In this document: in pieces, positions 13,995-41,960 of the stretch | How positions within the stretch are numbered: the first letter of the stretch is position 1 | Layout of the letters: every line of letters begins with the position of its first letter | Assembly (NCBI GenBank): GCA_965204035.1 | Contig: OZ241964.1 | Coordinates: forward strand, 1,438,726-1,502,725 | DNA length: 64,000 bases | Origin: Thermodesulfobacteriota bacterium | GTDB taxonomy: Bacteria; Desulfobacterota_D; UBA1144; Nemesobacterales; Nemesobacteraceae | Direction: 5' to 3' | The notes under the pieces: generated by a model | What the model was told of the DNA's origin: nothing | Database searches by the model: none | What the model saw: the letters and a program-made list of their open reading frames with translations, nothing else | Translations under genes and position numbers: made by a program

Positions 13995-14984
13995 ATGAAA
14001 TACGAAAAATTGACCGCAAAAAAGAAACTGCTGGATAAATATGCACCGCTGCCCGGCGCCCTTCTAAGCAATCTGGACGATTGGTTTCGGGTTGAACTGA
14101 CCTACACGAGTAACGCAATTGAAGGAAATACTCTAGGTCGCCGTGAAACCGCGCTGGTGGTCGAAAAAGGTCTCACCATCGGGGGTAAATCACTTCTTGA
14201 GCACATGGAAGCCGTAAACCACGCCCGCGCTCTTGACTGGGTCAAAGAACAAGCGAAAGGCAGACCGCATCCGCTGACCGAAGAGGATATCCTGCATATC
14301 CACCGTCTTATCATGAAGAGTATCGATGATCACAACGCCGGTCGTTACCGCGTGACGCCAGTGCGAATCTCCGGTTCGGCGGTAGCGCTGCCGAACCCGC
14401 GCAAAGTGCCGGACCTGATGAACGGGTTAGCGAAATGGCTCAAGCTGGCAACCGGCCTGCACCCGGTAGAATTGGCCGCCGAAGCCCATTACCGGCTGGT
14501 TACCATTCACCCGTTTACCGACGGCAACGGCCGCACGGCGCGGCTTCTAATGAACATGGTCCTGCTCATGTCGGGTTACCCCGCAGCAATAATACGCAAA
14601 CGCGACCGGCTGGCTTATATCGACTCGCTTGAAAAAACGCAGCTGGGCGGCTCTAAAGACGCATACATGAAAATTGTCGCGCGGGCGGTTGGCCGTTCAC
14701 TTGATATATATCTCAAGGCGGCTGAAGGCAAAACGGATACAGGCGATGATAATGCCCCCCTGCTTAAAATCGGTGAACTGGCAAAACTGGTCAACCAGAG
14801 AAATTCCACCATACGCCACTGGACCAAGGAAGGTCTGCTCGAAGTCGCCGAGATTACCGACGCCGGGTATCAACTCTATGCACAGGAGATGGTTAAAAGA
14901 ATAAGGTTAATAAACAAGCTTAAATCACGCAGATTTACGCTCAGGGAAATCAGGGAGAAAATACCGCGTGATTCTCAGGACTGA
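13995..14984 (+). CDS. Fic-domain protein fused to a C-terminal MerR-type HTH
   Basis: Fic motif HPFTDGNGRTARL. N-terminal inhibitory-helix motif SNAIEG. C-terminus LKIGELAKLVNQRNSTIRHWTKEGLL...YQLY is a MerR-like HTH. Confidence 0.85.
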   Translation: MKYEKLTAKKKLLDKYAPLPGALLSNLDDWFRVELTYTSNAIEGNTLGRRETALVVEKGLTIGGKSLLEHMEAVNHARALDWVKEQAKGRPHPLTEEDILHIHRLIMKSIDDHNAGRYRVTPVRISGSAVALPNPRKVPDLMNGLAKWLKLATGLHPVELAAEAHYRLVTIHPFTDGNGRTARLLMNMVLLMSGYPAAIIRKRDRLAYIDSLEKTQLGGSKDAYMKIVARAVGRSLDIYLKAAEGKTDTGDDNAPLLKIGELAKLVNQRNSTIRHWTKEGLLEVAEITDAGYQLYAQEMVKRIRLINKLKSRRFTLREIREKIPRDSQD

Positions 14985-19519: not shown

Positions 19520-20137
19520 TTACCCGAACAGCTTCGAAAGCCAAGCCATAAATGATGAATTTAATTGTGTTTGAGTAGTCAGGTCCCCCGCACCGATGGT
19601 GGCTCCCATTCTATTAGGTTTCTTTCTGGTAGCCAACCAAGCATAGAATTTTGCCTTATTTGATTTGGTTGGCAAAAACTTTTTATCATCCTCCGGAATG
19701 CTATCGATATAAGATTGGGCTAACGGCCACACCGGGTCATCATCTTTAATCATCTCTATTACGAAATCTTCGAGTTCCCCGCTTGCACTGTTATTGGGCA
19801 TCAGCCAAACACCTACGGTAGGTCCGCTGTCACTGTTAATAATTATGCCACTCTGATCCAGGTTCTCCGGAGGTTCAAAATCTGCGTCAATAAGTTTTTC
19901 CCTGATATCTTTCCAACGTTGCTTCGGACAACTGTTGCTGTCCATAACAAAGCCGACAGATTTACGTCCAGCAACCTTTGTTTGCACACTGATCTGTTTT
20001 AAGATATTGGGGTATCCTTCACAATCTTTTATGTCAAACTCAAGATTCTGCAGACACCGGTCTCGGATTTGCTTGATAACGTGTTTATCATCCTGTCCTT
20101 CAACTACAAGAAGATATTCATTGCCAACCGAAGCCAT
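19520..20137 (-). CDS. Small Toprim-like protein (DUF3226/DUF4276/DUF4435-like by recollection), partner of the upstream ATPase
   Basis: N-terminal LLVVEGQDDKHVI (EGxxD, Toprim/OLD-like acidic motif) and later GELEDF acidic block. Starts 2 nt after the ATPase stop. Confidence 0.55.
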   Translation of the reverse strand: MASVGNEYLLVVEGQDDKHVIKQIRDRCLQNLEFDIKDCEGYPNILKQISVQTKVAGRKSVGFVMDSNSCPKQRWKDIREKLIDADFEPPENLDQSGIIINSDSGPTVGVWLMPNNSASGELEDFVIEMIKDDDPVWPLAQSYIDSIPEDDKKFLPTKSNKAKFYAWLATRKKPNRMGATIGAGDLTTQTQLNSSFMAWLSKLFG

Positions 20138-20139
20138 TT

Positions 20140-21267
20140 CTATCTTACCTCTATATTGTATTCGGTGGCGGATTCAAGCTCGTTTTCTGAATACCTAATG
20201 CATCTCGTCCGCCCCTCTTCTCGTTCAAGACGGATAAGGACGCCTGAAACATCTTCGGCCTCGGTTGCGGCCCGCGCAAAACCTCTCACACAGTCGAAAC
20301 TGTGGGTCGTCGCGAAAACCTGAATATTATTTTCTTGCGCCGTTCGAAGTATCATACTCCAGAACTTGTGTTGAGCAGTGTAGTGAATTCCATTTTCCGC
20401 TTCATCAATCAGAAGGAACCCGTTGCGACAGTTACCCATAGCAAGGGCAGTACTGAATAACCGGGTAGCTCCATCACCAAGACTTTTCAGTGAGACAGGG
20501 CCATGTTTTCCAAGCCTGACGACAGCTCGCCTGCCCCTCCAACGAGCTCGAACCCCTTCCTCTCCAATCATAGCTACGCGATCCACCGGATCATCAAGAA
20601 CGAGGTTCAGAGCATTAATCGCAAGATCCTCATCTTCAGTAAGTGTGACTTCATCCCAGAGTTCGGCAATCGCTCTGTTAGATAAAATTTGAGGGCCCAG
20701 CCACTGTGATTTCATCGTTGCTGGTTTCTCATCCCTGTCAATAACATGCTGGATTCTTCGTTTCATTCTCCAGTTATTTTCAAACGAACCGAGAATCAGC
20801 CATTTCTTACCCCGGAAAGTTGTCCTGAATACAGGAACATCTCTTCCCGGAAAATCGTCGGCTACTAGTTCACGAAAGCGGGAAAGGCTTTTATCATCGG
20901 GAGCGGTCAGTTTAATTTTCAGCTTTCCGGTTTTGCCCTCTGGGCCAATTTCTATCTGCGCGCCCGTGGATGGTTCTCGTCCATGGAAAAGTGCCTTGAA
21001 ATCTAGCAAATCTACTTTCTCGCCATCTTTATCAATGCCAGCAAGAAACTCTTCACGCCCTATGATTAACTCGGCCAGTACGGACTCATCTGCACGAGCC
21101 GCATAAACTTTTACCGCTTCAAGAATAGTAGTCTTTCCACAACCGTTTCTCCCCGTAAACAAGGTTACATGACCCAATTTTGGAATTGAGAGTTTGTCGA
21201 AACACCGAAACCCCTTTATTGATAAATCAGGGAGATGGAACCCTCTGTCATCTAGTTGTTTGGACAT
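20140..21267 (-). CDS. ABC/SMC-like ATPase (AAA_21-like)
   Basis: Walker A GRNGCGKTT, signature-like LKSLGDGATR, Walker B FLLIDEAENGIH, H-loop ATTHS. Start placed at MSKQLDD (ATG 21267, AAAGGA RBS). The 54-codon upstream extension in the ORF track looks non-coding. Confidence 0.75.
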   Translation of the reverse strand: MSKQLDDRGFHLPDLSIKGFRCFDKLSIPKLGHVTLFTGRNGCGKTTILEAVKVYAARADESVLAELIIGREEFLAGIDKDGEKVDLLDFKALFHGREPSTGAQIEIGPEGKTGKLKIKLTAPDDKSLSRFRELVADDFPGRDVPVFRTTFRGKKWLILGSFENNWRMKRRIQHVIDRDEKPATMKSQWLGPQILSNRAIAELWDEVTLTEDEDLAINALNLVLDDPVDRVAMIGEEGVRARWRGRRAVVRLGKHGPVSLKSLGDGATRLFSTALAMGNCRNGFLLIDEAENGIHYTAQHKFWSMILRTAQENNIQVFATTHSFDCVRGFARAATEAEDVSGVLIRLEREEGRTRCIRYSENELESATEYNIEVR

Positions 21268-21517
21268 GGTATAAAATCCTTTGACGCGGATCCTGTAGCA
21301 TGTTAACCGAGACTGGAAAGCAACGACAACCAGATTCGGACTTTCAAAACAGCCACGAAAAACGATACCGAGATATTTAAGGATTGCAAAGAAAAAATTC
21401 CATTGTGTAAGGCCGTGAAAAGCATGCATGGAATTGCAACCGTGGAAATATCATTTCAGAAACTTTCTTTGCAATTCTTCCAGCATCATTCTCCCTCCGC
21501 TTGAAAAATTAGTGTCA

Positions 21518-24852: not shown

Positions 24853-25056
24853 TCAGTCCTCCAGAATGAAGGTGATCCTGACGTGGGAGCGGTACTCGGT
24901 AATCTTCCCATCCTCTATGTGGGCGTTCATTTTCGTTACCTCGATTCCGGTAAGACCCCTTATCGTCTTGTTCGCCCTGTCAAGAGCCTCTTGCACAGCG
25001 TCATCCCATGATTTCTCGGATGATCCTATAACCTCTGTCACTCTAGCTACAGCCAT
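24853..25056 (-). CDS. Dodecin-family small flavin-binding protein
   Basis: 67 aa. ...VIGSSEKSWDDAVQEALDRANKTIRGL...HIEDGKITEYRSHVRITF matches the dodecin pattern. Confidence 0.8.
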   Translation of the reverse strand: MAVARVTEVIGSSEKSWDDAVQEALDRANKTIRGLTGIEVTKMNAHIEDGKITEYRSHVRITFILED

Positions 25057-25291
25057 GGTAATCCTCCTTAAAACAGTTTTTTGCCGTAATTCGGGGCCTA
25101 TATTATAACGCTATTTCCAAATCTTTGTAAACCGTCCGCATCACTGAGGCGTGCGCGCTGTTGAGCACGCGCATATGTATCAAGTCCCCGAGTGCGAAAA
25201 AAAATTCTGCCCCGGGATTTCCTGTTTCTGTTCAGAGCTTGACCGGATGCGGGAATTCTGAGAGGCGCCCGAAAGACCTCGGGCAACCAAT

Positions 25292-25320
25292 TTGAATTTA
25301 TTCCCGCTTGCCGTTATACT
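25292..25320 (+). promoter_or_regulatory. Sigma70-type promoter: -35 TTGAAT, 17-bp spacer, -10 TATACT
   Basis: Conserved base-for-base in all three copies. Lies 24 nt upstream of the leader ATG (25345). GCCCGA-N6-TCGGGC hairpin immediately upstream. Confidence 0.7.
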
Positions 25321-25393
25321 GACGGTCGGAGGGTATACAGAAAGATGAGCAAAACAGAAAGAAATCCGTTACTGATGACTGAGAAAGGGGCTA

Positions 25394-25409
25394 CCCCCCC
25401 CCCCATTTT
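25394..25409 (+). repeat. Homopolymer tract C11-A-T4 inside the leader coding region (copy A)
   Basis: Counted directly. The leader ORF 25345..25428 terminates 19 nt after the tract because the downstream signal-peptide frame is offset by 1 nt. Confidence 0.95.
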
Positions 25410-25561
25410 GTCTCCCGCTAAGTTCTGATTCCCCCGGTTTTTCCCGCAAGTCCGCCCGGACGCTTTCCCTTCTCCTGTTCCTGCTGCTCGGCGCGTTCAG
25501 TCTGCCCGACGCGGCTTTTGCCCAGATTCTAAGGGTTGTTTATGCGGTAAAGGACCTAAGC

Positions 25562-27763
25562 GTGTCCGCGGTCGGCAACACGCTGCGAGTGTCGTGGGCT
25601 AACGACACTGATAACGGCTTTGACGCTCCTACTCATCACCTTGTGCACTACACCACCTCGGCCACCTTGAGAAGCGATTTAAGCAATGTAGGCTCAAACG
25701 TAGCCACCCAGTGGGTGGACGCGGGCCACAGCGGCACGACGACCTCGCACACGATCTCCGGTCTGAGCTACGGCACGACCTATCGGGTGCGCGTACAGAA
25801 CCAATATGTAGGGAGTGATAGTCAAAATTCCAACAGCCTTTGGACAACCAGTAGCGCTACGACCGGGGCTGCCCCCACGACCCCCACGACTCCTGCGCAG
25901 ACCGCCGAGCTTGGGGCTATCACGCCTGGCGCCGAGGGCGGAGTTCCGTCCATCTCGGTTTCCTACCGCCCCGTCACCTCCTCCTATATACAGATCGTAA
26001 AGAGCGATCAGCCCGCGTTCGGACCCGGGGACACCTGGCCGGAGCGCTACCGAGAGTGCCCCGGAAGAACCCTGCCCGGCGGCGTCGCCGCGGTGAGAAC
26101 GGAGGACACGTTTACCCCCGGAGTCAAGCGAGTCATTTTCAAGGGGTTTGATAAGGATACCACTTACCTGGTGCGGACTTGCAAAGGTTCAGTCATCTCT
26201 CCCCAGCTTTCCGTCACCACCTGGACCGTTCCCGGACCGCCGAAGGACGAGAAGGTGGTTGGCAGCAACAAGGACGGGATCTGCGTCAGATGGGCTCCTC
26301 CCGACAACAATGGCGGCGAGGGGGCGAGCATAACCGGCTACGATCTCCAGTTCAGGGAGTCTGGTGCGTGGAATAGCGAAGAGGCAAGCCACCCAAGAGA
26401 CGGATGGGTGACGGTTCCCGTCTTCGGAACCAGCACCAGCAAGGATATTCTCCGCCGCAGGGTGGATAACGGCAATGTGCTCTACACGGTGCCCGAAGGT
26501 CTGTACGATGTCCGGGTGCGGGCGAAAAACGGTATTGATCCCGGGAGCAAGTGGGTTACCAAAGAACTGGTGCAGGTGTCCGACCAGGGAACGGGTACCT
26601 GCGCCGCGGGAACATCCGTTCCCGCGCAGACTCCCCCCGCGCAGACTCCCCCCGCACAGACTCCAACGACGGGAGGCGGCGGCACCCCGGGCGGCGGCGG
26701 CACCCCGGGCGGCGGGGGTGGTACTCCTTCCGGCGGCGGTGAACCGCAACTGTCTTCAGACGCTTCCCTGAGCGGACTCCGCGTCTCTGAAGGAGACCTG
26801 ATGTTCAGCCCCGGGACGCGGGACTACGAAGTGACGGTGGGTCTTGAGGTGAGCGAACTCTCACTCACCCCAGAGGCCGGTCACCCCGACGCGGAAATAG
26901 AGATAAACGGCGTCTCCGCGCAAAGCGGAGAGGAAACGCGGATTGATCTCGGGGAGGACGAAACCGTCTCGATAACGATAACGGTCACCGCTCCCGACGG
27001 AGAGACCGCGATAACCTACACGGTAAGAGTTGCACGGGGGGAGGAGTGCGGGATAAACGACAAGGAAGCCCTCACAAGGTTCTACCGGGCCACGGGGGGA
27101 GACGAGTGGACAATGAAAGACAACTGGAACACCGAAAATCCTCTTGGGGAGTGGTACGGAGTAAGTACCGATGAAAACGAAAAAGCAATATCCCTTCTTC
27201 TGGCTGACAACAACCTTGAGGGAAAGATTCCCAGGGAGTTTCTGTGCCTCGCGGAACTCAAGGAACTCGCCCTCTGGGGCAACGAGGGGCTTTCGGGGCA
27301 TGTACCCGAAAACCATACGCTGGCGACAGAGAGGGCCGCGCTTCTTTACATTGCGCGCGCGCTTTCGCTCAACGCCGAGTGGTTCGATACTTACGAAGCC
27401 CCCTATTACGACTTCCCGGAGTGGCATGACGGGGTTACGACGGATGACGGAAGGGTAACGGAACTTTCCTTCTCGGGGGAAGACATAAGCGGAGTGATTC
27501 CCGTAATTCTCTTAACACAGCTAGAAGAGCTTGAGACTCTTGACCTTGAGTGCTCGGGCATCACCCTTGGCGGAGACGCGCCCGCGGGGGTTGAGGTAAA
27601 GGAGGGCTGCGATGAGGAAGAGGAGGAACGGCCGGACGGCGGGGGAGGCTGCGCTCTCGGAGACCAGGGGAGCGGGGGAGCGCCAGGCATCCTGCTTCTG
27701 CTGCTTGTGGCTGCCGTGTACTGGAGAGGGGCTTTTCTGAAAGTCCTCGGACGACCAGTTTGA
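25562..27763 (+). CDS. Family member 1: FN3 repeats, Pro/Thr/Gly linker, cadherin-like beta-sandwich, LRR, GGC tail; disconnected from its start codon and signal peptide (apparent phase-OFF)
   Basis: The frame is open from 25379 and encodes FCLPLSSDSPGFSRKSARTLSLLLFLLLGAFSLPDAAFAQ (signal peptide) with no ATG/GTG/TTG before 25562. FN3-like blocks (LRVSWA..YRVRVQN; VRWAPPDNNGG..YDVRVRAKN). LSGLRVSEGDL..YEVTV cadherin-like. LADNNLEGKIP LRR. Tail GGGGCALGDQGSGGAPGILLLLLVAAVYWRG. Confidence 0.75.
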   Translation: MSAVGNTLRVSWANDTDNGFDAPTHHLVHYTTSATLRSDLSNVGSNVATQWVDAGHSGTTTSHTISGLSYGTTYRVRVQNQYVGSDSQNSNSLWTTSSATTGAAPTTPTTPAQTAELGAITPGAEGGVPSISVSYRPVTSSYIQIVKSDQPAFGPGDTWPERYRECPGRTLPGGVAAVRTEDTFTPGVKRVIFKGFDKDTTYLVRTCKGSVISPQLSVTTWTVPGPPKDEKVVGSNKDGICVRWAPPDNNGGEGASITGYDLQFRESGAWNSEEASHPRDGWVTVPVFGTSTSKDILRRRVDNGNVLYTVPEGLYDVRVRAKNGIDPGSKWVTKELVQVSDQGTGTCAAGTSVPAQTPPAQTPPAQTPTTGGGGTPGGGGTPGGGGGTPSGGGEPQLSSDASLSGLRVSEGDLMFSPGTRDYEVTVGLEVSELSLTPEAGHPDAEIEINGVSAQSGEETRIDLGEDETVSITITVTAPDGETAITYTVRVARGEECGINDKEALTRFYRATGGDEWTMKDNWNTENPLGEWYGVSTDENEKAISLLLADNNLEGKIPREFLCLAELKELALWGNEGLSGHVPENHTLATERAALLYIARALSLNAEWFDTYEAPYYDFPEWHDGVTTDDGRVTELSFSGEDISGVIPVILLTQLEELETLDLECSGITLGGDAPAGVEVKEGCDEEEEERPDGGGGCALGDQGSGGAPGILLLLLVAAVYWRGAFLKVLGRPV
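26621..26665 (+). repeat. 15-bp in-frame tandem repeat x3 (CCCGCGCAGACTCCC), followed by a Gly-rich imperfect repeat
   Basis: Encodes PAQTPPAQTPPAQTP; followed by GGGGTPGGGGTPGGGGGTP. Confidence 0.9.
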
Positions 27764-27788
27764 ATTTATTCCCGCTTGCCGTTATACT
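27760..27788 (+). promoter_or_regulatory. Sigma70-type promoter copy B: TTGAAT-17-TATACT
   Basis: Same sequence as copies A and C. The member-1 stop codon TGA (27761-27763) sits inside the -35 hexamer. Confidence 0.7.
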
Positions 27789-27874
27789 GACACTCCAGTG
27801 TCAGGTAAGGAGGTAGTACAGAAAGATGAGTAAAGCAGAAAGAAATCCGTTACTGATGACTGAGAAAGGGGCTA

Positions 27875-27890
27875 CCCCCCCCCCCATTTT
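27875..27890 (+). repeat. Homopolymer tract C11-A-T4 (copy B)
   Basis: Counted directly. Leader ORF 27826..27909 stops shortly after the tract. The main frame is offset by 1 nt. Confidence 0.95.
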
Positions 27891-28060
27891 GTCTCCCGCT
27901 AAGTTCTGATTCCCCCGGTTTTTCCCGCAAGAGCACTAAAGCAATTTCCCTTCTTCCCGGACTGACCGGCGGCCATGGCGCCGCTCCGGCGGTCTCGCGC
28001 CGGGCCGCGTCCGCGTGGCGCCGCCCCGCCCTCCTCCCCGTCCTCGCGCTGCTGCTCGGC

Positions 28061-30538
28061 GTGTTCGGCCTGTTCGAGGCCGCGCCCGCCGCGGCGCAGA
28101 CCCCCGTCTGGTCGTCGGTGCTGACGGTTAATGCGGAAGGCGCAGGCCTAGGCTGCGGCGTTGTAGCCGGCTGTGGGTCTCGGTTAACGGACAATAGCTT
28201 TACGGTGGGCGGCACGGACTTTGTTATTGCTTTATTGCAGGACTACAACAGTGGCACTTATAGCGGTCAACTGAGGTTCCAGTTAGATGAGAATCCGAAT
28301 GATGCTCTGAAGGCCATGAAACTTTGTGTCGGGTCGACCTCATTTTCGCTGTCGAGCCCTTTTGGCAATCTGTACGCTTTCACCAACGCCAACCTGCCCT
28401 GGTCGGCCGGCGCCAAGGTGCCCCTGAGCATCATGGGCAGCGGCGCGTCCTGCCCGACGCCCCCGGTCTCGCTGGGCCGCGCCGGCAGCATGTCCGTCGA
28501 CGGGTTCCACCCAATGGGACCCGGACGCATGAAGATCGCCGAGGGCACATCGATCACCTACGGCATCGTGATCCACCAGCCGCCCACCGCGGATCTGACC
28601 ATCACGCCGCGACACCACAACGTCCGACCGGACGGCAGCGACTACCCCAACGTCGACACCAGTCTGCTCACGATCCACAACGCGGTCACCTGGAAAGCCG
28701 CCCCGCACCCCAACTACCTGAGCGGGGACTGGCAGCAGGCCAAATCGGTCGGGCTCACCGCCGTGGACGACAACGAGTGCAAGTCTCCGCCCGGCACCCG
28801 GTACTGGATCAGGCACCACGGCAGCGGCGGCGGTCCCGACTGGGGCGGGTGGGACCGGCAGGACCGGCACCATGGCCTGGTGATCTCGATCGAAATCATC
28901 GACGACGACTGCAAATATCTGGCCGCTTCCCCGGGCCAGGTGTATCCGGAGGAGGGCGCCAGCGCGACCTACACCGTGCGCCTGAAGACGCCGCTCGAGG
29001 ACGCCGCGTACATTTCCCCGCGCATCAGCGTCCCCGGCGACAGCGACCCCGGCGCGATCACGGTCTCTCCCGAGCGGATCCGGGTCGAAGCGGGAGACAC
29101 GAGCCCGAAGACGTTCACGGTCAGCGCCGGAAGGGACGCGAACTCCCGTAACGAGGTCCTGATCGTCGACCACAGCGTCGACTCGCCGGGGATCCCGGCG
29201 GATTACCTGGGCGCCCAGGTGACCGTCATTGTCCAGGACGAACAGAACGCGGCGAGGACGCAGGAGCGCGACGCGCTGAGCGTGACCGGGCTCGCGCTCA
29301 CGGCCGGTTCGGAGGCGGTGGCGCTGAGCCCGGCCTTCTCGACGGATGTGCTGTCCTACCGGGCGCAGGTCCCGGCGGGGACGGCGGGCGTGACGCTGGC
29401 GCCGCACTGGAGCGGCGGGGCGAGCGTGTTCGCGGGCTCGCGCCGGGGCGATACGACCTTCACGCGCCCGGCGCGGGTGCGGCCCTCGGGGACGGCGGTC
29501 GCGCTGGCGCTGGCGCCGGACGGCGGCGCGACCGAGCTGTGGGTGATGGCGAGCGACGGTTCGAGCGGCATGACGACCTACCGCATCGAGGTGACCGAGG
29601 CGCAGACGCAGGCGCAGGCTCTGACGACGGGCGGAGGAGGCACCCCGGGCGGCGGTGGCGGTTCTCCTTCCGGTGACGGAGGAGGCGGTGGAGCCCCTCC
29701 CACTGGCGGAGACAGTCCTTCGCCCGAAGAACCCCAAGAGCCTGAACAGACTGATGAGTGCGGAGATAACGACAGGGAAAACCTTGTGAGACTCTACGAC
29801 GCTACGGGCGGAGACAACTGGGATGAGGAAAAGAAGACAAACTGGAACTCCCCCGAACCTCTCGATCAGTGGTATGGAGTGGATACAGATGAAGACGGAG
29901 AGGTTGTATCCCTTCGTCTTGCGGATAACAATCTCTCCGGACAGATGCCGACAAAAGAACTTCTGTGTCTTAATGAAGACACGGAACTCAAGGAACTTGC
30001 CCTCTGGGATAACGACGGTCTCTCGGGAGAAGAGCCGGATGAACTTGTGCTTGCCGTCGAGAGAGCCGTGCTGAGAGACATAGCGGAAACGATTGACCTT
30101 AACCCCGAGTGGTTTGATGATTACGAGGAGCCCTTTGACTTCGAGAGCTGGCACTCAGGAGTTACGACGGATGAGGATGGAAGGGTGACGGGGCTTGATT
30201 TCACCGGGGAAGACATAGAGGGAGTGATTCCGGGGAGTGTTTTTGAGCTTGAAAACCTCACAGTCATAAGGAAGGGATGCGAAGTCACCCTTGAAGTCGA
30301 AGAGCCAGAGGGAGTGAATGTGATGATGGCTGAAGACTGCCCGGAGGAGACGGCACCTGAAGACATGGAAGAAATGGAGGAAGAGGAAACGGCAGCGTCC
30401 GGAGACGGGGGATGCGCCCTGGGTCAAGGGGATTCTTCTGTATCCGGCTTCGGCTTGTTCCTCGTGACTATTCTTGTCTTCGCGGCGCTTGTGAGAAAAA
30501 GGGTGCTGGTTTCCCGTCTGGCTGGGAACAGGCGGTAA
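28061..30538 (+). CDS. Family member 2: high-GC N-terminal adhesin-like region, Gly-rich linker, LRR, GGC tail; also disconnected from its leader ATG (apparent phase-OFF)
   Basis: The frame is open upstream through FCLPLSSDSPGFSRKS...RRPALLPVLALLLGVFGLFEAAPAAAQ. The only in-frame start is a GTG in the middle of the signal-peptide h-region. Cadherin-like block LSPAFSTDVLSYRAQV. LRR block LADNNLSGQMP. Tail DGGCALGQGDSSVSGFGLFLVTILVFAALVRKR. Confidence 0.75.
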   Translation: MFGLFEAAPAAAQTPVWSSVLTVNAEGAGLGCGVVAGCGSRLTDNSFTVGGTDFVIALLQDYNSGTYSGQLRFQLDENPNDALKAMKLCVGSTSFSLSSPFGNLYAFTNANLPWSAGAKVPLSIMGSGASCPTPPVSLGRAGSMSVDGFHPMGPGRMKIAEGTSITYGIVIHQPPTADLTITPRHHNVRPDGSDYPNVDTSLLTIHNAVTWKAAPHPNYLSGDWQQAKSVGLTAVDDNECKSPPGTRYWIRHHGSGGGPDWGGWDRQDRHHGLVISIEIIDDDCKYLAASPGQVYPEEGASATYTVRLKTPLEDAAYISPRISVPGDSDPGAITVSPERIRVEAGDTSPKTFTVSAGRDANSRNEVLIVDHSVDSPGIPADYLGAQVTVIVQDEQNAARTQERDALSVTGLALTAGSEAVALSPAFSTDVLSYRAQVPAGTAGVTLAPHWSGGASVFAGSRRGDTTFTRPARVRPSGTAVALALAPDGGATELWVMASDGSSGMTTYRIEVTEAQTQAQALTTGGGGTPGGGGGSPSGDGGGGGAPPTGGDSPSPEEPQEPEQTDECGDNDRENLVRLYDATGGDNWDEEKKTNWNSPEPLDQWYGVDTDEDGEVVSLRLADNNLSGQMPTKELLCLNEDTELKELALWDNDGLSGEEPDELVLAVERAVLRDIAETIDLNPEWFDDYEEPFDFESWHSGVTTDEDGRVTGLDFTGEDIEGVIPGSVFELENLTVIRKGCEVTLEVEEPEGVNVMMAEDCPEETAPEDMEEMEEEETAASGDGGCALGQGDSSVSGFGLFLVTILVFAALVRKRVLVSRLAGNRR

Positions 30539-30585
30539 AAGCTTTTTGCGTTGCACGATGCGATACGGCGCATCTCCTTAATCCC

Positions 30586-30783
30586 GGAGAGGCGCCCGCG
30601 GGGGTTGAGGTAAAAGAGGGCTGCGATGAGGAAGAGGAGGAACGGCCGGACGGCGGAGGGGGAGGCTGCGCTCTCGGAGACCAGGGGAGCGGGGGAGCGC
30701 AAGACATCCTGCTTCTGCTGCTTGTGGCTGTCGCGTACGGGAGAGGGGCTTTTCTGAGGGGGCGGCGCGGAAGAAACCTCTGA
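30586..30783 (+). pseudogene. Orphan 3' fragment of a family member (tail only, no start)
   Basis: Encodes ...APAGVEVKEGCDEEEEERPDGGGGGCALGDQGSGGAQDILLLLLVAVAYGRGAFLRGRRGRNL*, near-identical to the last ~65 codons of members 1 and 3. Lies 48 nt after the member-2 stop. Confidence 0.8.
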
Positions 30784-31024
30784 GAAGAGAGAATTCATCC
30801 GACAGGTAATCCGGGGATGTCGGGAAGCGGATTCGTTGCGGCGAAGCGCCAGGATTTTAACTGGCCGGCAAGTTTGAGGCGTGCGCGCTGTTGAGCACGC
30901 GCATATGTATCAAGGGTTTCCCCGGGTGCGAAAAAACTTCTGCCCCGGGATTTTCTGTTTCTGTTCAGAGCTTGACCGGATGCGGGAATTCTGAGAGGCG
31001 CCCGAAAGTCCTCGGGCGACCAAT

Positions 31025-31053
31025 TTGAATTTATTCCCGCTTGCCGTTATACT
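31025..31053 (+). promoter_or_regulatory. Sigma70-type promoter copy C: TTGAAT-17-TATACT
   Basis: Identical hexamers and spacer. Lies 24 nt upstream of ATG 31078. Confidence 0.7.
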
Positions 31054-31077
31054 GACGGTCGGGAGTTAGACAGAAAG

Positions 31078-34000
31078 ATGAGTAAAGCAGACAAAGATCC
31101 GTTGCTGATGACTGAGAAAGGGGCTACCCCCCCCCCCATTTTTTGTCTCCCGCTAAGATCTGATCCCCCCGGTTTTTCCCGCAAGTCCGCCCGGACGCTT
31201 TCCCTTCTCCCGTTCCTGCTGCTCGGGTTTCTGTGCCTGATGAACGCCACACCCGCTGCGGCGCAGACATCCATCTGGTCTGCGACGCTGACGACGAGGC
31301 CGACAGATAACGGTAACCGGTTCACCGGCTGCCGGAATGCCAGAAGTGGAAACACCAAATGCAGCGATACCTCCACGTTGACGGACGATGATCTTACGGT
31401 CAGTGGCACGGATTATCAGATAATATCGATTTATGCGGAGAAGAGTCGTTCCAATTCCACTCTGGTGATGCAATGGGACCAGGACGTGAGAACCGCACTG
31501 GACAGCTACAAGCTCTGCGCCGGCACGAAGCAGTATGCGTTCGCGGACGCAACGCACGCTGCCAATGATTATACCCAGTGGCAGGCCTCAGCCCTCTGGT
31601 CTGACGGCGATATGATTTCCCTGAGCATCGGCACGTCCTGCCCGAGCTATGTCCCTCCCCCCACGGTATTGCTCTCGGCCACTCCGAACCCCGTGAAAGA
31701 GGGGCATCCGGTGACGCTGACGGCCACCCTGTCTGAGGCCCTTACGATCGATGTCAACATTCCGCTTAAGTTTATCAGGGGCACGACGGGCTCGTGGGAC
31801 TACGGTGCTACGCCGCACATCTCGATCCCAAGCGGGCAGACTACCGGCACGGTCACGATCCCGACGCGGCCGGACCATGACCACGACGACGAGATCTTCA
31901 CGGTGGAAATTTTCAAGCCAAACCTGACCGCGTTGCTGACTGCGGGCAGCATGACCTCCGTTATGGTGACGATCCGTGACACGCCGCCGTCGGAGCACCC
32001 GGCCGCCCCCACGGCGACGAGAAATGCCGGCCTGAGTCGTATCACTCTGCTGACAGACACCGCCAGTACCAATGCTGCTACGGGGAACATCCAGAAGCGC
32101 GTGGAAGACAGTCTCAGCCCGTCCTTCCATTCCGACATCCTCAACTACGCGGTGCGCGTGGACGCCGGGGTGAAGAGAATACAAGTGGGTGTCACACCCC
32201 AATACCCTAACTCTATAGCTTACCTCATCATCTACAGCCAGCCGGCAATCCGCTCCGCCCCCTACACCCGTTGGGTGGAACTGGACACGGACGTCAAGCG
32301 TATACGGATCTTGGTGGATACCCCGGGAGCTGCACAAAGGCGGATCTACGAGCTGACGGTGCTTCGGGGCGGTGTCGTGGATCCGTACGCGGAGGATCAG
32401 ACCACAGTCTGGTCATCGACCCTGACGGCGAAGGAACTCTCATCAAGCTTGAGAGGTTGCGATGACTCTGATCAACTGGCTGCAAACAAGTGCTTGGAGG
32501 CCCTTACGGAAAATGAGTTCTCGTATTCGGGTACGCGCTATGGTGTCAGGTTGCTCTCACTCGGCTTCGTTAGCGGCGATTCCAACTTCCTTTTCGGACT
32601 CAACAAGGCCATCCCCAGCGCCATGAAGAACCTCTTGACGCTACACGTCGGAAAAGAACGGGCGCTCCCGCTTAGTTCCAGCACCTTTTCTTCCCAGAGC
32701 GGCAATACCCTCCAATGGTTAAGGTATGTCGTGGGAGGATGGGGAGTGGGCGGTACCGTTCTGCTGAAGCTGACGGGACCGACCTCGCCGGTCATCCCCG
32801 CGGTCTCGCTCTTGGCCACTCCGAACCCCGTGAAAGAGGGACATTCGGTGACGCTGACGGCCACTCTGTCTGCGGCGCTTCCGGTGAATACCTTCATTCC
32901 GCTTAAGTTTATTAGGAGCACGGCGGACTCGTTGGACTACGGTGCTACGCCGCACATCTCGATCCCAAGCGGGCAGACTACCGGCACGGTCACGCTGAAG
33001 ACGAAAGTGAACGTGTACGACGACGACGACGAGACGTTCACGGTGGCGATTGACGAGGACAATCTGTCCTCGAGGTTGACTGCGGGAAGCCTGTCCTCCG
33101 TCACGGTGACGATTGAGGACTACCTGCCGCCCGTCCTGCGGGAGCTCTCCCTTTTCGCCGTGGACAACAGACCCTACGCGAGACGCCTGGGTTTTGTGGA
33201 AGATGATCTTGAACCGACTTTCCACGAAGACACCCTCAACTACACGGTGCGCGTAGACGACTGGGTGCGGTATATAAGGGTGGGTGCCGAAGCCCGATAC
33301 AGTAACCCTGAAGACCCGACGAAGGTACTCGTCAACGGCGAGCCGAAGAAACCTTTCTCCAGTTTTTGGGTGGAACTGAAGGATGTCACGCCGATCGAAA
33401 TCGTGGTGAGGACTCCGCTCGGGGAGTCGCGGACCTACGCGGTGAGAGTGCTTCGGGGCAATGCCGAGACTCCGCCCGATCAGACTCCGCCCGATCAGAC
33501 TCCCCCCGATCAGACTCCCCCCGATCAGACTCCAACGACGGGCGGAGGCGGCGGTCCTCCTTCCGGCGGCGGTGAACCGCAACTGTCTTCAGACGCTTCC
33601 CTGAGCGGACTCCACGTCTCTGAAGGAGACCTGATGTTCAGCCCCGGGACGCGGGACTACAAAGTGACGGTGGGTCTTGAGGTGAGCGAATTCTCACTCA
33701 CCCCAGAGGCCGGTCACCCCGACGCGGAAATAGAGATAAACGGCGTCTCCGCGCAAAGCGGAGAGGAAACGCGGATTGATCTCGGGGAGGACGAAGAAAC
33801 CGTCTCGATAACGATAACGGTCACCGCTCCCGACGGAGAGACCGCGATAACCTACACGGTAAGAGTTGCACGGGGGGAGGAGTGCGGGATAAACGACAAG
33901 GAAGCCCTCACAAGGTTCTACCGGGCCACGGGGGGAGACGAGTGGACAATGAAAGACAACTGGAACACCGAAAATCCTCTTGGGGAGTGGTACGGAGTAA

Positions 34001-34602
34001 GTACCGATGAAAACGAAAAAGCAATATCCCTTCTTCTGGCTGACAACAACCTTGAGGGAAAGATTCCCAGGGAGTTTCTGTGCCTCGCGGAACTCAAGGA
34101 ACTCGCCCTCTGGGGCAACGAGGGGCTTTCGGGGCATGTACCCGAAAACCATACGCTGGCGACAGAGAGGGCCGCGCTTCTTTACATTGCGCGCGCGCTT
34201 TCGCTCAACGCCGAGTGGTTCGATACTTACGAAGACCCCTATTACGACTTCCCGGAGTGGCATGACGGCGTTGCGACGGATGACGGAAGGGTGACGGGGC
34301 TTTCCTTCTCTGGGGAAGACATAAGCGGAGTGATTCCCGTAATTCTCTTAAGACAGCTTGAGCGCCTTGAGACCCTTGACCTTGAGTGCTCGGACATCAC
34401 CCTTGGCGGAGACGCGCCCGCGGGGGTTGAGGTAAAAGAGGGCTGCGATGAGGAAGAGGACCTGCCGGGCGACGGAGGGGGAGGCTGCGCTCTCGGAGAC
34501 CAGGGGAGCGGGGGAGCGCCAGGCATCCTGCTTCTGCTGCTTTTGGCTGTGGCGTACGGGAGAGGGGCTTTTCTGAAGGGGCGGCGCGGAAGAAACCTCT
34601 GA
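31078..34602 (+). CDS. Family member 3 (1174 aa, intact, apparent phase-ON): 2 x [novel N-module + Calx-beta-like + cadherin-like], linker, cadherin-like, LRR, GGC tail
   Basis: Leader MSKADKDPLLMTEKGATPPPIFCLPL... joins signal peptide LLPFLLLGFLCLMNATPAAAQ. Calx-beta-like blocks (ATPNPVKEGH.VTLTATLS...DDE.FTV). Cadherin-like blocks (LSPSFHSDILNYAVRV; LEPTFHEDTLNYTVRV; FSPGTRDYKVTV). LRR. Tail GGGGCALGDQGSGGAPGILLLLLLAVAYGRGAFLKGRRGRNL. Confidence 0.85.
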   Translation: MSKADKDPLLMTEKGATPPPIFCLPLRSDPPGFSRKSARTLSLLPFLLLGFLCLMNATPAAAQTSIWSATLTTRPTDNGNRFTGCRNARSGNTKCSDTSTLTDDDLTVSGTDYQIISIYAEKSRSNSTLVMQWDQDVRTALDSYKLCAGTKQYAFADATHAANDYTQWQASALWSDGDMISLSIGTSCPSYVPPPTVLLSATPNPVKEGHPVTLTATLSEALTIDVNIPLKFIRGTTGSWDYGATPHISIPSGQTTGTVTIPTRPDHDHDDEIFTVEIFKPNLTALLTAGSMTSVMVTIRDTPPSEHPAAPTATRNAGLSRITLLTDTASTNAATGNIQKRVEDSLSPSFHSDILNYAVRVDAGVKRIQVGVTPQYPNSIAYLIIYSQPAIRSAPYTRWVELDTDVKRIRILVDTPGAAQRRIYELTVLRGGVVDPYAEDQTTVWSSTLTAKELSSSLRGCDDSDQLAANKCLEALTENEFSYSGTRYGVRLLSLGFVSGDSNFLFGLNKAIPSAMKNLLTLHVGKERALPLSSSTFSSQSGNTLQWLRYVVGGWGVGGTVLLKLTGPTSPVIPAVSLLATPNPVKEGHSVTLTATLSAALPVNTFIPLKFIRSTADSLDYGATPHISIPSGQTTGTVTLKTKVNVYDDDDETFTVAIDEDNLSSRLTAGSLSSVTVTIEDYLPPVLRELSLFAVDNRPYARRLGFVEDDLEPTFHEDTLNYTVRVDDWVRYIRVGAEARYSNPEDPTKVLVNGEPKKPFSSFWVELKDVTPIEIVVRTPLGESRTYAVRVLRGNAETPPDQTPPDQTPPDQTPPDQTPTTGGGGGPPSGGGEPQLSSDASLSGLHVSEGDLMFSPGTRDYKVTVGLEVSEFSLTPEAGHPDAEIEINGVSAQSGEETRIDLGEDEETVSITITVTAPDGETAITYTVRVARGEECGINDKEALTRFYRATGGDEWTMKDNWNTENPLGEWYGVSTDENEKAISLLLADNNLEGKIPREFLCLAELKELALWGNEGLSGHVPENHTLATERAALLYIARALSLNAEWFDTYEDPYYDFPEWHDGVATDDGRVTGLSFSGEDISGVIPVILLRQLERLETLDLECSDITLGGDAPAGVEVKEGCDEEEDLPGDGGGGCALGDQGSGGAPGILLLLLLAVAYGRGAFLKGRRGRNL
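31127..31144 (+). repeat. Homopolymer tract C11-A-T6 (copy C, in frame)
   Basis: Two more T than copies A and B. Reads ACC CCC CCC CCC ATT TTT TGT = TPPPIFC and continues into the signal peptide. Confidence 0.95.
33466..33540 (+). repeat. 15-bp in-frame tandem repeat x5 (CAGACTCCSCCCGAT)
   Basis: Encodes (E/D)QTPP repeated: ETPPDQTPPDQTPPDQTPPDQTPTT. Confidence 0.9.
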
Positions 34603-34958
34603 GAAGAGATCCCGACCGTGATATCATCCGCGCTCCTGAGCGGATGCGGGGTAAAGCCGCGACGATACCCGGCGCGCGCGTGGAAACGTCATAGAACACA
34701 TAAACTCAAGGACAGTTCAGGTCCGAAAGGCGCTTTATCAGGGGCGAGGGAGGAGATGACCGCACGGGCGGGTGTAGCGTTGGCGGGGATGATGGCGCTT
34801 GTTTCGGGATGCCGGGCCAGGGTCGGATAGCGGTTCTCCGTTTGTTCAGGCAGAAAATTTAAAAGCAGGATTGTCCCAATAGCGGCTGACGTCGTGGCGG
34901 TGAAGTTCTGGCTGCGGAAATCCGAAGCCCGAAAATCGTTACGGCGGAAAAGGCCTCA

Positions 34959-35762
34959 TCACTCAAATCTGTGCTGCCCCGGGAAAATATATCCCACAAC
35001 GAACGTCGCCACCACGATGCAGAATCCGATCACGGCTCCAAGCGCCGCCCTTCTGCCCCTCCATCCGAGGGAAAGTCGTCCGTTTATCAAAAAAGCGTAA
35101 AGAAGCCACGTAACGGTAGACCACGTTTCCTTGGCTCCCCACGTCCATCCCTCGCTCCATATTTCTTTTGCAAGTACGAAACCGATCACGAGACTCACGG
35201 TGAGAAGCGGGAACCCGAGCAGGAGACTCAGGTGGTTTATCTTGTCGAGCGTTATTAGGGAAGGGAGTTTTTTCAGGTTGCTTCCGATTCTTTTCGATTT
35301 CAACTGGTTTTCCTGGAATATGTAGATCGCGCCCGCGAGACAGGATATCGCGAAAAACGCCTCTCCAAGGAAAATGGACAGTATGTGTGCCAGCACCCAT
35401 GGGTTTTCAAGCGTCGGGTCCTGGGTAATCATCCCATCCGGAATGATCACGTAGGGCAGAGTTCCAAGGAAAGCCACGGGGAGCACGAACGCACCGAGCA
35501 CGGGGGTCCTGAACCTTAACTGCGAAACTAAAAAGACAAGAGTTATAAGCCACGAGAAAATAAAAAGGGGCCTTGAAGTGCTTCCGGCCAGCACGTCGCC
35601 GCGCATGAGGAAAACAACGAGCAGCGCGGTATGAGTAAGCACCCCCGCAACAGCGAAATAAATGCCCGCCCGGGAGATTTTTCTTTTCTGCGACCAGAGG
35701 TAAGTGCCGTAAAGAAGGGAAGAAAGCAGGTAAAGGGCGGAAATCAGATATATGGCATTCAT
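34959..35762 (-). CDS. CcsA/YpjD-type cytochrome c assembly family membrane protein
   Basis: Eight-helix-type hydrophobic profile with a Trp-rich WSEGWTWGAKETWS block resembling the WWD heme-handling motif. Confidence 0.65.
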   Translation of the reverse strand: MNAIYLISALYLLSSLLYGTYLWSQKRKISRAGIYFAVAGVLTHTALLVVFLMRGDVLAGSTSRPLFIFSWLITLVFLVSQLRFRTPVLGAFVLPVAFLGTLPYVIIPDGMITQDPTLENPWVLAHILSIFLGEAFFAISCLAGAIYIFQENQLKSKRIGSNLKKLPSLITLDKINHLSLLLGFPLLTVSLVIGFVLAKEIWSEGWTWGAKETWSTVTWLLYAFLINGRLSLGWRGRRAALGAVIGFCIVVATFVVGYIFPGQHRFE

Positions 35763-40577: not shown

Positions 40578-41960
40578 ATGACTCCTGAACAAATAAAAGC
40601 ACTGGTAGCAAAAGGCGAATCCGAAACGCTTGAGTTCAAGCTCTCTACGGGAAGGCGCAGTGACGCAATGAAAACCGTGTGCGCCATGCTCAATCAACGC
40701 GGCGGGCACGTGCTGTTCGGCGTATCTCCGGAAGGAAAAATAGAAGGCCAGCAGGTGTCTGACCGGACCATTGAGCAGTTAAGCTCCGAAATCCGGAATA
40801 TTGAATCTCAGGTTTTTCCCTCAATTGAGCGGGTACGCGTAAAAGGAGACCTCGAAGTGGTGGTAATAAGCGTGAAACCCGGCAATTCCAAGCCGTATGC
40901 TTACAAACGCAAAGAGTATCGCAGGGTCGGAAACACCACCGTAGAAATGTCGCGCTGGGATGTCACGCAGATGCTTATCGAGGAAGTGCACGAAAAATAT
41001 CGATGGGAAAAACTGCCCGCCGAGGAGTGGTCGATTGAAGACCTTGACGCGGACGAGATTCGGATCACGGTGCAGGAGGCAATCAGGCAAAAACGCCTGA
41101 AAGCCCCGGTAAGCATGGAATTGACTGATTTGCTGCGCGGTCTGGAACTTCTTGGACAAGACGACGAACTGCTTCAGGCGGCGGTCGTGCTGTTCGGCAA
41201 GGAGGAACTCATCGCCCGCAGAATGCCGCAGTGCCTGCTGTGCGTCGCCCGCTTCCGAGGTTTTGATAAAATGGAGTTTCTGGACAATCGGCAGTTCAAG
41301 GGCAACGCTTTCAAGCTTCTTGAGGATGCGGAACGATTTCTGCGCGAGACCCTGCCCATCGCCGGACGGTTTGAACCGGGCCGCTTCGCGCGGATTGACG
41401 AACCGCTCTACCCACACGAAGCAACACGGGAAGCGATTATAAACGCGTTATGTCATCGTGACTACATCATTGCCGGCAGTTCCGTGGACTTGGCGGTCTA
41501 TGATGACCGTATGGAGGTGGTCTCTCCAGGTCCGCTGCACTTCGGACTGACTGCTGAGAAACTGTTCGCATCACACCAATCCCAGCCGTGGAATCCTCTG
41601 ATCGCCAGTACGTTCTACCGTCGAGGAATTATCGAGAAGTGGGGAACAGGAACTATCAAGATGGCGGAAATAATGGAGTCCGCGCATCTTCCGCGCCCCG
41701 AGATTGAGGATAATGGAAGAGATGTAACAGTATGTTTCCGACGCAACTTAATTGATTCGATTGAACGGCAGGAAGTAATTATCTTTTTGATCGACCGCCA
41801 AGCCGATGGACTTACCCTAAGCGACATTCACGCACAGATGCCTCCATATGTAAGTAAACGTCAAGTAAAAAGAGACTTAACCGTCTTGAAAGAGCGTGGT
41901 CTAATAGTATCTACAAAACCAGGTCGCTGGGGACGGTGGATTCGCACAAGAAACTCATAG
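40578..41960 (+). CDS. AlbA_2 (Schlafen-like) + HATPase_c_4-like + C-terminal wHTH putative regulator (often annotated RecG-like)
   Basis: N-terminus GESETLEFKLS...MLNQRGGHVLFGV is the typical AlbA_2/divergent-AAA opening. Middle NALCHRDY block. C-terminal helix-turn-helix-like region. Confidence 0.7.
   Translation: MTPEQIKALVAKGESETLEFKLSTGRRSDAMKTVCAMLNQRGGHVLFGVSPEGKIEGQQVSDRTIEQLSSEIRNIESQVFPSIERVRVKGDLEVVVISVKPGNSKPYAYKRKEYRRVGNTTVEMSRWDVTQMLIEEVHEKYRWEKLPAEEWSIEDLDADEIRITVQEAIRQKRLKAPVSMELTDLLRGLELLGQDDELLQAAVVLFGKEELIARRMPQCLLCVARFRGFDKMEFLDNRQFKGNAFKLLEDAERFLRETLPIAGRFEPGRFARIDEPLYPHEATREAIINALCHRDYIIAGSSVDLAVYDDRMEVVSPGPLHFGLTAEKLFASHQSQPWNPLIASTFYRRGIIEKWGTGTIKMAEIMESAHLPRPEIEDNGRDVTVCFRRNLIDSIERQEVIIFLIDRQADGLTLSDIHAQMPPYVSKRQVKRDLTVLKERGLIVSTKPGRWGRWIRTRNS

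Follow-up and report, generated by a model that had tools for sequence, protein, structure and literature searches.

A strain-variable island of three modular, putatively phase-variable genes with frame-setting poly-C tracts in a Thermodesulfobacteriota bacterium

Within a 64,000-nt stretch of contig OZ241964.1 from a Thermodesulfobacteriota bacterium (the whole stretch is referred to here as the window), three forward-strand genes, denoted m1, m2, and m3 in strand order, lie between a dodecin gene (24853–25056, reverse strand) and a ccsA-like gene (34959–35762, reverse strand), as read from an open reading frame (ORF) listing and directly from the DNA. Together they make up an island that varies between strains, and all three are putative contingency genes. 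As assembled, two of the genes are off and one is on, and homopolymer length alone separates the states. Judged from sequence, the arrangement is probably explained by slipped-strand phase variation, independent for each gene, of modular surface proteins sorted by their C-termini.

The 5′ module and the frame states

Each gene opens with a copy of one 5′ module. The three copies of the 32-nt promoter block TTGAATTTATTCCCGCTTGCCGTTATACTGAC, at 25292, 27760, and 31025, are its only occurrences, with 0 expected by chance. It contains the promoter-like site TTGAAT-17-TATACT, and a leader ATG lies ~25 nt downstream of each copy (25345, 27826, and 31078). The block joining leader and poly-C tract, CTGATGACTGAGAAAGGGGCTACCCCCCCC, is also found three times (25372, 27853, and 31105). 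Near-identical leaders, MSK(T/A)(E/D)(R/K)(N/D)PLLMTEKGAT, lead into a run of 11 cytosines (C11; 25394, 27875, and 31127) that sits 16 codons past the start, within tracts that read C11-A-T4 in m1 and m2 and C11-A-T6 in m3. By self-BLAST, the modules of m1 (25145–25491) and m3 (30875–31226) are 92.9% identical over 353 nt, and a shorter copy in m2 (27739–27931) is 88–90% identical. C runs of at least 9 number 12 in the window against 1.2 expected and are nearly confined to these modules, as they are in the homologous loci described below. A preliminary description of this DNA had proposed three same-strand genes with common 5′ and 3′ modules, each with this promoter, a leader, and a C11-A-Tn tract; the exact block counts and self-BLAST confirm both points. 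The features of the three 5′ modules are as follows.

25145–25491, forward: m1 5′ module, with a 40-nt block (25145–25184), promoter-like site (25292–25320), ATG (25345), tract, and signal-peptide coding sequence
25345–25428, forward: m1 leader ORF, MSKTERNPLLMTEKGATPPPILSPAKF followed by a stop, 27 codons, TGA at 25426–25428
25394–25409, forward: m1 switch tract, C11-A-T4, with the body in the +1 frame
27760–27788, forward: m2 promoter-like site, starting within the m1 stop codon (TTGA at 27760)
27826–27909, forward: m2 leader ORF, 27 codons, MSKAERNPLLMTEKGATPPPILSPAKF followed by a stop
27875–27890, forward: m2 switch tract, C11-A-T4, out of frame
30875–31226, forward: m3 5′ module, with a 40-nt block (30875–30914), promoter-like site (31025–31053), leader, tract, and signal peptide
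31127–31144, forward: m3 switch tract, C11-A-T6, in frame (C15-A-T5 in the ortholog of a second strain, also in frame)

The consequence of the tract is seen in the reading frames. In m1 and m2 as assembled, the frame from the ATG ends after 27 codons (...ATPPPILSPAKF and a stop), and both signal peptide and body are encoded in the +1 frame. Removing one C in silico yields an intact product of 805 amino acids for m1 and 903 for m2. The m3 gene is in frame as assembled (1174 amino acids), and any change of one nucleotide in either direction truncates it after 24–28 codons in silico. Upstream of the signal peptide's hydrophobic core, the body frames of m1 and m2 contain no ATG, GTG, or TTG, and in m1 there is none before codon 61. 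CTG or ATT starts for these frames were considered and rejected, as no Shine-Dalgarno (SD) sequence stands at a usable spacing.

Two of the features by which contingency genes are recognized are present: a mutable tract (about 9 or more for G/C) lies in the reading frame, and a change in its length switches between full-length and truncated products in silico. When tract lengths are compared at the same locus, they differ for m3 and for one pair of sponge-metagenome loci (L008 and L010) and are identical for m2 and three other sponge loci. These frame states, which are the main point of the locus, were not spelled out in the preliminary description. Its proposal that the genes are individually switchable is supported in that each has its own promoter-like site and its own frame-setting C11, a design that recurs with C7–C11 in homologues from other genomes.

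The element described earlier as a hairpin proved to be the conserved 40-nt block, which is identical in m1 and m3 and occurs nowhere but inside the island. As a hairpin or terminator it was rejected, for it folds no better than shuffled sequences (z = −0.69) and was not picked by a terminator scan. Nor was a frameshift-stimulating RNA structure detected, the tract plus ~60 nt downstream folding at z of ~0 to 0.9. An exact scan of GTDB representative genome contigs with the leader DNA gave no match.

The island, a second strain, and sponge-associated relatives

About 20 related-strain contigs carry exact CcsA-like and dodecin proteins, with the two genes ~85 nt apart in all but one. By exact-protein look-up, the three-gene locus is missing from these strains except for the one represented by contig L043. 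Alignment to the empty site sets the limits of the insert, whose G+C content is 0.602 vs. 0.497 in the flanks.

25146–34963: strain-specific island between the dodecin and ccsA-like genes, 9,818 bp including one repeat copy
25139–25145: left copy of the 7-bp direct repeat CATCACT flanking the island
34957–34963: right copy of CATCACT, overlapping the ccsA-like stop codon (34959–34961, reverse)

A strong promoter-like site for dodecin, TTTACA-18-TATAAT (11/12 matches; 25131–25102, reverse), stands 8 bp outside the left end. Because the insertion site falls between this promoter and the ccsA-like stop codon, the island was inserted without disturbing either. None of the marks of an integron-type cassette or mobile element (a recombinase or transposase gene, terminal inverted repeats, or attC sites) was found in the island, which contains only the three genes and has the 7-bp direct repeat at its ends.

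The L043 contig and the window are collinear, with 97% identity, over a region that starts within m2 and extends past the RNase Y gene. All 14 indel events between the two fall inside the island, with none in 5.7 kb of flank and 0 differences in prfA. The nine coding indels are all multiples of 3, and so are the six indels between the two m2 alleles, for which the chance is ~(1/3)^6. Substitutions concentrate in the shared modules, and the m3 cargo is 99.5% identical. The m2 tract is C11-A-T4, the off state, in both strains. The m3 tract is C15-A-T5 in L043 vs. C11-A-T6 in the window, and the gene is on in both strains because these two tract changes sum to +3 nt. The m3 gene of L043 also has two additional copies of the PDQTP repeat and a Gly run 21 nt shorter, so that its product is called at 1178 amino acids (1174 + 1 + 10 − 7). 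Modules differ as well: in L043, m3 has an m2-type 5′ untranslated region, and the gene standing in place of m1 has a 3′ module resembling that of m2. This comparison provides the most direct evidence suggesting that tracts change length, that the frame encoded in DNA matters, and that modules are exchanged. A comparison of related genomes for cargo swapping had been put forward as a check on the preliminary description, and L043 shows swapped modules.

Further homologues were collected through the 3′ module alignment, and the resulting 29 metagenome and 4 genome loci were scanned by script. The homologous 3′ modules are 41–57% identical; those that are named belong to Candidatus Dadabacteria metagenome-assembled genomes (MAGs), and the samples are sponge metagenomes. 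Among them are MKWU01, which Slaby et al. (PMC5649159) assembled from Aplysina aerophoba, and one locus on MPMH01, the same authors' SBR1093 bin. The GlyQ protein of the window is ~80% identical to proteins of named Dadabacteria/Thermodesulfobacteriota MAGs and 96–99% identical to proteins on contigs of 1.5–2.0 Mb. Exact-sequence look-ups of the m1, m2, and m3 bodies and of the gene at 60253–61572 found none on record.

A common arrangement recurs in these loci, consisting of a good SD sequence, an ATG with 16–17 codons, a C run of 9–11, stops in two of the three frames, and a signal peptide. The leader sequences have diverged (MKNSA.RNNPLQLEFSS and MKTFTRNKKL.RYEFSS in relatives), and both the run length (C7, C8, C9, C10, or C11) and the next base vary among copies with identical flanks. 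Only one of the 12 distinct genes that bear a switch is in frame; of the other 11, six would need one more C and five one fewer. The ~7,560 codons downstream of the frameshifts in those 11 genes contain no other stop or frameshift. Judged by their coding sequence, the out-of-frame copies show no sign of decay.

Several copies lack the leader (L006, L008, L009, L021, and L035) and keep C3–C8. One of them permits a close comparison, as L008, which like L010 comes from an A. aerophoba metagenome, is 100% identical to L010 and L011 over 1,372 and 7,674 nt on either side of the difference. Positions 4797–4899 of L010 hold a 103-nt segment with SD sequence, leader, and C10, where L008 has AGT (1373–1375) plus C7. 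The difference is not a simple deletion, as AGT replaces the segment in the same manner as in other leaderless copies, which read ..tagGAAGTCCC. The module in L019 is degenerate (ATG changed to ATA), orphan modules and orphan tails occur, and double signal peptides are found in m2, P0001, and L033. In the SBR1093 bin (L020 and L057–L060; MPMH01000062.1), the fn3 part (489 amino acids, with a C9 switch) and the cadherin-LRR-tail part (P0009; LRR, leucine-rich repeat) are separate ORFs 12 nt apart, the second with its own signal peptide, and C9 is present in all five assemblies.

Protein architecture and the C-terminal tail

Downstream of the switch, each gene consists of a variable middle and a 3′ module ending in a short tail.

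25379–27763, forward: m1 body frame, with signal peptide, fn3, Gly/Pro/Thr linker, cadherin-like domain, LRR, and tail
27860–30538, forward: m2 body frame, with a remnant of the module signal peptide, a second n/h/c region, a ~125-residue unmatched domain, a G+C-rich block, a cadherin-like domain, a diverged LRR, an acidic stretch, and tail
31078–34602, forward: m3 intact ORF of 1174 amino acids, with leader, signal peptide, two units of unmatched N-terminal domain, LapA-type repeat, and cadherin-like domain, then PDQTP linker, cadherin-like domain, LRR, and tail
26706–27741, forward: m1 3′ module, joined at its end to upstream sequence of the m2 5′ module
33539–34577, forward: m3 3′ module, common to m1
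30585–30790, forward: orphan tail with acidic stretch, GGC motif, membrane helix, and basic end, lacking a gene body; 93.7% identical to the m3 tail
34480–34602, forward: m3 C-terminal tail, GGCALGDQGSGGAPGILLLLLLAVAYGRGAFLKGRRGRNL, with equivalents at 27644–27763 (m1) and 30407–30538 (m2)
62751–64000, reverse: fourth tail protein, GGGGCAVGG..LLVTLALLLTVLLKRH, without a Pfam match; the gene runs off the window

Pfam finds Cadherin-like domains in all three genes, fn3 in m1, and in m3 two LapA (a Calx-beta-like adhesin repeat) and three cadherin-like matches. The cadherin-like domain of the 3′ architecture and the FN3 repeats of m1 had both been described from the sequence, as had the high-GC block of m2, which has a G+C content of 0.66. 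For m3, the cadherin-like repeats stand, and LapA takes the place of the Calx-beta domain described earlier, which itself was not detected in the Pfam scan at E ≤ 0.01. The claim that each gene carries different cargo holds for the unrelated middles of m1 and m3 and has to be amended for m2 and m3, as m2 and, twice, m3 begin with the same ~125-residue domain (28091–28460 in m2; 31264–31650 and ~32410–32800 in m3; 32% identity, E = 4e-15). This domain has the pattern QT.(I/V)WSATLT ... GC ... C ... LTDDDF.Y.G..Y and belongs to no Pfam family. It is also present in L007, L009, L010, L015, L023, L035, and L036, and it opens many homologues, alternating with fn3 as the first mature domain. A 15-nt tandem repeat coding for PAQTP/PDQTP occupies the linkers at 26621–26683 and 33475–33552. 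Two ORFs lie antisense or in an alternative frame within G+C-rich m2 (28340–30154, reverse, 604 amino acids; 28324–29151, forward, 275 amino acids) and are most likely artefacts of composition rather than genes.

The 3′ modules of m1 and m3 are 96.4% identical over 1041 nt by self-BLAST. That of m2 has diverged, with 72–74% identity at the DNA level and ~49% in protein. The plant-type LRR named in the preliminary description is supported at the level of profiles, with a match to plant LRR-receptor ectodomains (FLS2, 4mn8, E = 1.7e-37, also BRI1, SERK, and others), and falls short in Pfam, where all LRR models score below gathering (LRR_4 17.9 and LRR_8 17.4, cut-off 27; LRR_1 16.2, cut-off 20.6). 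Profile positions 9–92 align to FLS2 residues 9–92, which comprise the N-cap and two LRRs. As in the plant ectodomains with their LRRNT_2 cap, a cap xALxxFYxxTxGxxWxxxxNWxxxxPLxxWxGV is followed by LxxNxLSGxIP repeats. Unlike them, the bacterial proteins have about two repeats per unit, two tandem cap-plus-repeat units, and no kinase. AlphaFold modeling of the LRR and tail module from 12 sequences gave a mean predicted local distance difference test (pLDDT) score of 54.5, with the first 87 residues below 50.

The tail is built of GGCA(L/V), a spacer of ~8 residues (often xPKDDSSAF), a hydrophobic membrane helix, and a basic end at the extreme C-terminus. All 16 aligned tails and all 12 modules contain G-G-C-A without variation. 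A tail profile finds only 75 clusters in 1.84 billion representative proteins. In almost all of these, the match falls at the C-terminus or no more than a few residues from it, and the ten clusters that were scanned carry fn3, cadherin-like, or LRR domains. Several unrelated proteins bear the tail, namely m1, m2, m3, the orphan, and the protein at 62751–64000, together with a non-LRR protein in L013. The fourth tail protein has a C11 run (63841–63851) inside a long poly-Pro linker. It is in frame as assembled, and a slip there would remove the C-terminal domain and anchor.

Among NCBIfam models, the best matches of the tail are weak, MYXO-CTERM (TIGR03901) in 12 of 16 tails and JDVT-CTERM (NF033191) in 10 of 16. 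The curated sorting models tried as assignments (MYXO-, JDVT-, GlyGly-, PEP-, and VPDSG-CTERM) all score below cut-off. Signals of the MYXO-CTERM class are tripartite, contain an invariant Cys, and are cut by CPBP-type myxosortases before surface display (bioRxiv 10.1101/2023.06.07.544157), a cleavage demonstrated experimentally for TraA/MrtX (PMC11980579). Dadabacteria are unmentioned in the searched text of both papers. The tail resembles the MYXO- and JDVT-CTERM signals in its extreme C-terminal position, in its short Gly/Cys signature with invariant Cys, membrane helix, and basic cluster, and in its presence on several different secreted proteins of one genome. It differs in the GGCA(L/V) motif with ~8-residue spacer, in its sub-cut-off scores, and in a lineage outside those described for the class. 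Because of these scores, the tail is filed as the same kind and not as a member of MYXO-CTERM or JDVT-CTERM; it is treated here as a putative undescribed variant, in Dadabacteria, of the Cys-containing class of sorting signals. The signal peptide and the tripartite Cys-containing tail together lead us to infer that the products are surface proteins.

The genes bear several marks of recombination, as the preliminary description had suggested. The ends of m1 and m3 are near-identical around unrelated middles, the orphan tail noted there was recovered, and its observation of a promoter fused into the preceding stop is accounted for by the m2 promoter beginning inside the m1 stop codon. The m1 gene ends in KVLGRPV and not KGRRGRNL, since its tail is joined to upstream sequence of the following 5′ module. 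The double signal peptides, the different modules of the first gene and the m3 5′ untranslated region in L043, and the 103-nt leader segment present or absent in an identical 9-kb background are of the same character.

Proposed mechanism, alternatives, and setting

In the proposed mechanism, each gene would be transcribed from its own sigma-70-type promoter. As the sequence shows, translation from the leader ATG passes through 16 codons into the C tract. One of the three tract-length classes leads on to the signal peptide; the other two reach a stop within ~10 codons, and the body has no start of its own. Slipped-strand mispairing during replication at the C run and the adjacent T run would add or remove bases, as the tract differences between orthologs and paralogs suggest, and in a fraction of cells each gene would change state independently of the others. 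The product of an on gene would be exported by Sec, and its signal peptide cut at an AxA-Q site. Its variable N-terminal domains (fn3, the ~125-residue domain, LapA/Calx-like, and cadherin-like) would be borne on a conserved base of cadherin-like and plant-type LRR domains. By analogy with MYXO-CTERM/JDVT-CTERM, the tail would most likely mediate inner-membrane retention, intramembrane cleavage, and perhaps Cys modification, followed by surface display. Recombination or gene conversion between the shared ends, as comparison shows, reshuffles the cargo and leaves orphan tails, fused junctions, and double signal peptides. The payoff is likely variable display of eukaryote-like adhesion domains toward the sponge host or phages.

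The closest parallel is found in Neisseria, where genic G/C runs of 9–20 are the accepted phase-variable range (PMC5953494) and pilC has a G/C homopolymer of this length. The Opa and PilC proteins likewise form multi-copy surface families with their own promoters, a slippage-prone repeat just past the start that sets the frame, most copies off at any time, and mosaic alleles produced by recombination between copies. In contrast, the proteins considered here form an unrelated family of modular fn3/cadherin-like/LRR proteins and are not beta-barrels or a pilus tip, and they belong to a sponge symbiont of a different phylum (Dadabacteria/Thermodesulfobacteriota) and not a human pathogen, with switching predicted from sequence. 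The run is also placed in a separate 16-codon leader before the signal peptide, and some copies carry a bypass start or are leaderless.

Several observations weigh against phase variation by slippage. Only one of the 12 distinct genes is on, and the chance of one or fewer is ~0.05 if one third are expected on; this low count could mean that expression depends on transcriptional or translational slippage and not on DNA switching. Low on-fractions are normal for multi-copy phase-variable families. The modal state looks stable, because three sponge loci keep the same out-of-frame run (C9, C9, and C10) in 3–5 independent assemblies and m2 is C11-A-T4 in both strains. Some copies do not need the switch, because they have their own SD sequence and ATG or GTG after the run (L033, ~5005–5080, and L036, ~4662–4720, on a complete 1.54-Mb chromosome; L001, 60–80; L005, ~217–270). 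In these the run may tune rather than gate translation. In L036, the stop of one leader frame overlaps the bypass ATG (ATGA). The leaderless copies L009, L021, and L035 have C3 only and no visible start. Between strains, the ratio of nonsynonymous to synonymous polymorphism (pN/pS) is 0.6–0.85 in m2. With a ratio this high, the substitutions do not demonstrate that the out-of-frame gene is under purifying selection; a calculation from 31 changes (pN/pS 0.85) was set aside as uninformative. The surface location is a prediction, as are the promoter and the cleavage of the signal peptide. The tail is below all curated cut-offs, with a best MYXO score of 16.0 (cut-off 20) and JDVT score of 15.3 (cut-off 27). 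Pfam scans of ~40 window genes gave housekeeping and defence functions only, with no sorting protease, and a CPBP motif scan of all fetched loci gave no match.

One alternative explanation holds that the genome is out of frame by design and that the frame is restored in a fraction of transcripts or ribosomes by recoding, through slippage of RNA polymerase on C9–C15 or a slip of tRNA-Pro on CCC-C while the ribosome stalls at Pro-Pro-Pro, with low, tunable expression of all copies. CCC-C sites tend to slip by +1, and long homopolymers favor transcriptional slippage. Recoding would account for 11 of 12 genes being out of frame, for the same out-of-frame length in 3–5 assemblies of three loci and in m2 of both strains, and for a run read as Pro-Pro-Pro in the leader frame. 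However, six genes need an additional C and five need one removed, which a single programmed direction of frameshift does not fit. No conserved RNA structure lies downstream of the tract, and run length and following base vary between copies. The two tract changes that separate the m3 orthologs, moreover, add up to +3 nt and leave both in frame, implying selection on the frame encoded in DNA. C and G runs are classic replication-slippage sites and are poorer sites of transcriptional slippage than A and T runs. Recoding is the main rival, though an unlikely one. A further proposal, which is doubtful, views the 5′ unit (promoter, SD sequence, 16-codon leader, poly-C run, stop trap, and partial signal peptide) as a portable switch cassette that would be copied before complete secreted-protein genes and could be excised again, so that the lineage could bring any surface protein under stochastic control. 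Its traces would be the double signal peptides and the leader segment of 103 nt that one copy has and another lacks in an identical background. The island as a whole may also be mobile: a 7-bp repeat flanks it, and its terminal 40-nt block is found again at a module boundary in its interior. The result would be a new kind of mobile phase-variation module in an animal symbiont, possibly combined with slippage-based leaky expression of off copies.

It is quite improbable that the genes are merely decaying, inactivated where homopolymers frameshift first, or kept as an archive of silent donor cassettes for recombination. Leaderless C3 copies without a start codon (L009, L021, and L035), the degenerate L019 module, the orphan modules and orphan tails, a pN/pS near 1 in the m2 cargo, and the absence of the island from most strains of the species would agree with decay. 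Yet ~7,560 codons past the frameshifts are free of a second lesion, and the six m2 allele indels are all multiples of 3. The run, leader start, and two-frame stops are conserved across genomes whose GlyQ is only ~80% identical. Unselected homopolymers of 9–15 would be expected to erode. Least probable by far is an artefact of mis-assembly (a collapsed or chimeric contig) or homopolymer error, with the genes really in frame. The family does break short-read assemblies, with many homologues at contig ends, L043 is a low-coverage long-read contig (4.85x), and homopolymers of at least 11 are error-prone on several platforms. Nevertheless, L043, an independent assembly, has the same succession of genes from within m2 across m3 into the flank, with 97% identity, supporting the order that the preliminary description had feared might be artefactual. 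Its homopolymer calling is sound, because no indel occurs in the 5.7-kb flank, and Illumina, hybrid, and long-read assemblies all show out-of-frame runs at homologous genes. The window modules are not a collapsed repeat, because they differ by substitutions, and the island junctions are clean against the empty site.

Eukaryote-like proteins with LRR, fibronectin III, cadherin, and ankyrin repeats are noted as a symbiosis feature of sponge symbionts (PMC5649159 and PMC8163846). The present family resembles them in the sponge-metagenome origin of all relatives and in its fn3, cadherin-like, and plant-type LRR content. In the literature searched, no paper was found that describes such proteins as phase-variable, with a 5′ switch module, or with a Cys-type sorting tail. 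The view that the family could be placed in none already known stands, in that no curated model exists for the tail or module. It is qualified by components of known kinds, namely a homopolymer switch, a MYXO/JDVT-CTERM-like tail, and eukaryote-like repeats. The switch is thus of a known kind; as far as curated libraries and the literature show, the protein family, lineage, symbiotic setting, and portable 5′ module are new.

The eukaryote-like adhesion domains for which sponge symbionts are known are believed to serve in recognition of the host or evasion of phagocytosis. If slipped-strand phase variation is correct, symbiont populations would be mixtures of surface types, a form of bet-hedging as in mucosal pathogens, and the locus would be a concrete case of a sponge symbiont varying its eukaryote-like surface proteins as such pathogens do. 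A frame-setting poly-C tract in each gene, a strain-variable island, and shared ends that permit reshuffling of cargo support such a mixture. Phase variation further predicts a distribution of tract lengths for each gene that would be readable in existing metagenome reads. The family is under-counted in surveys of symbiont MAGs, because its genes are shortened or overlooked by gene callers and are points at which short-read assemblies break.

Outside the island, the window is dense in genes of defence or toxin type (13995–14984, 19520–21429, 40578–41960, 49619–50455, 51804–52412, 53601–54854, 55160–56461, and 56523–57788), a set that includes two Fic, AAA_15 with DUF3226, Schlafen/AlbA_2, TIR, HEPN, a DUF4143 ATPase, and HipA. 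The AAA_15/DUF3226 pair (19520–21429) has no counterpart in related strains, and the region by the Fic-MerR gene also differs among them. These differences suggest that the window may hold further strain-variable islands.

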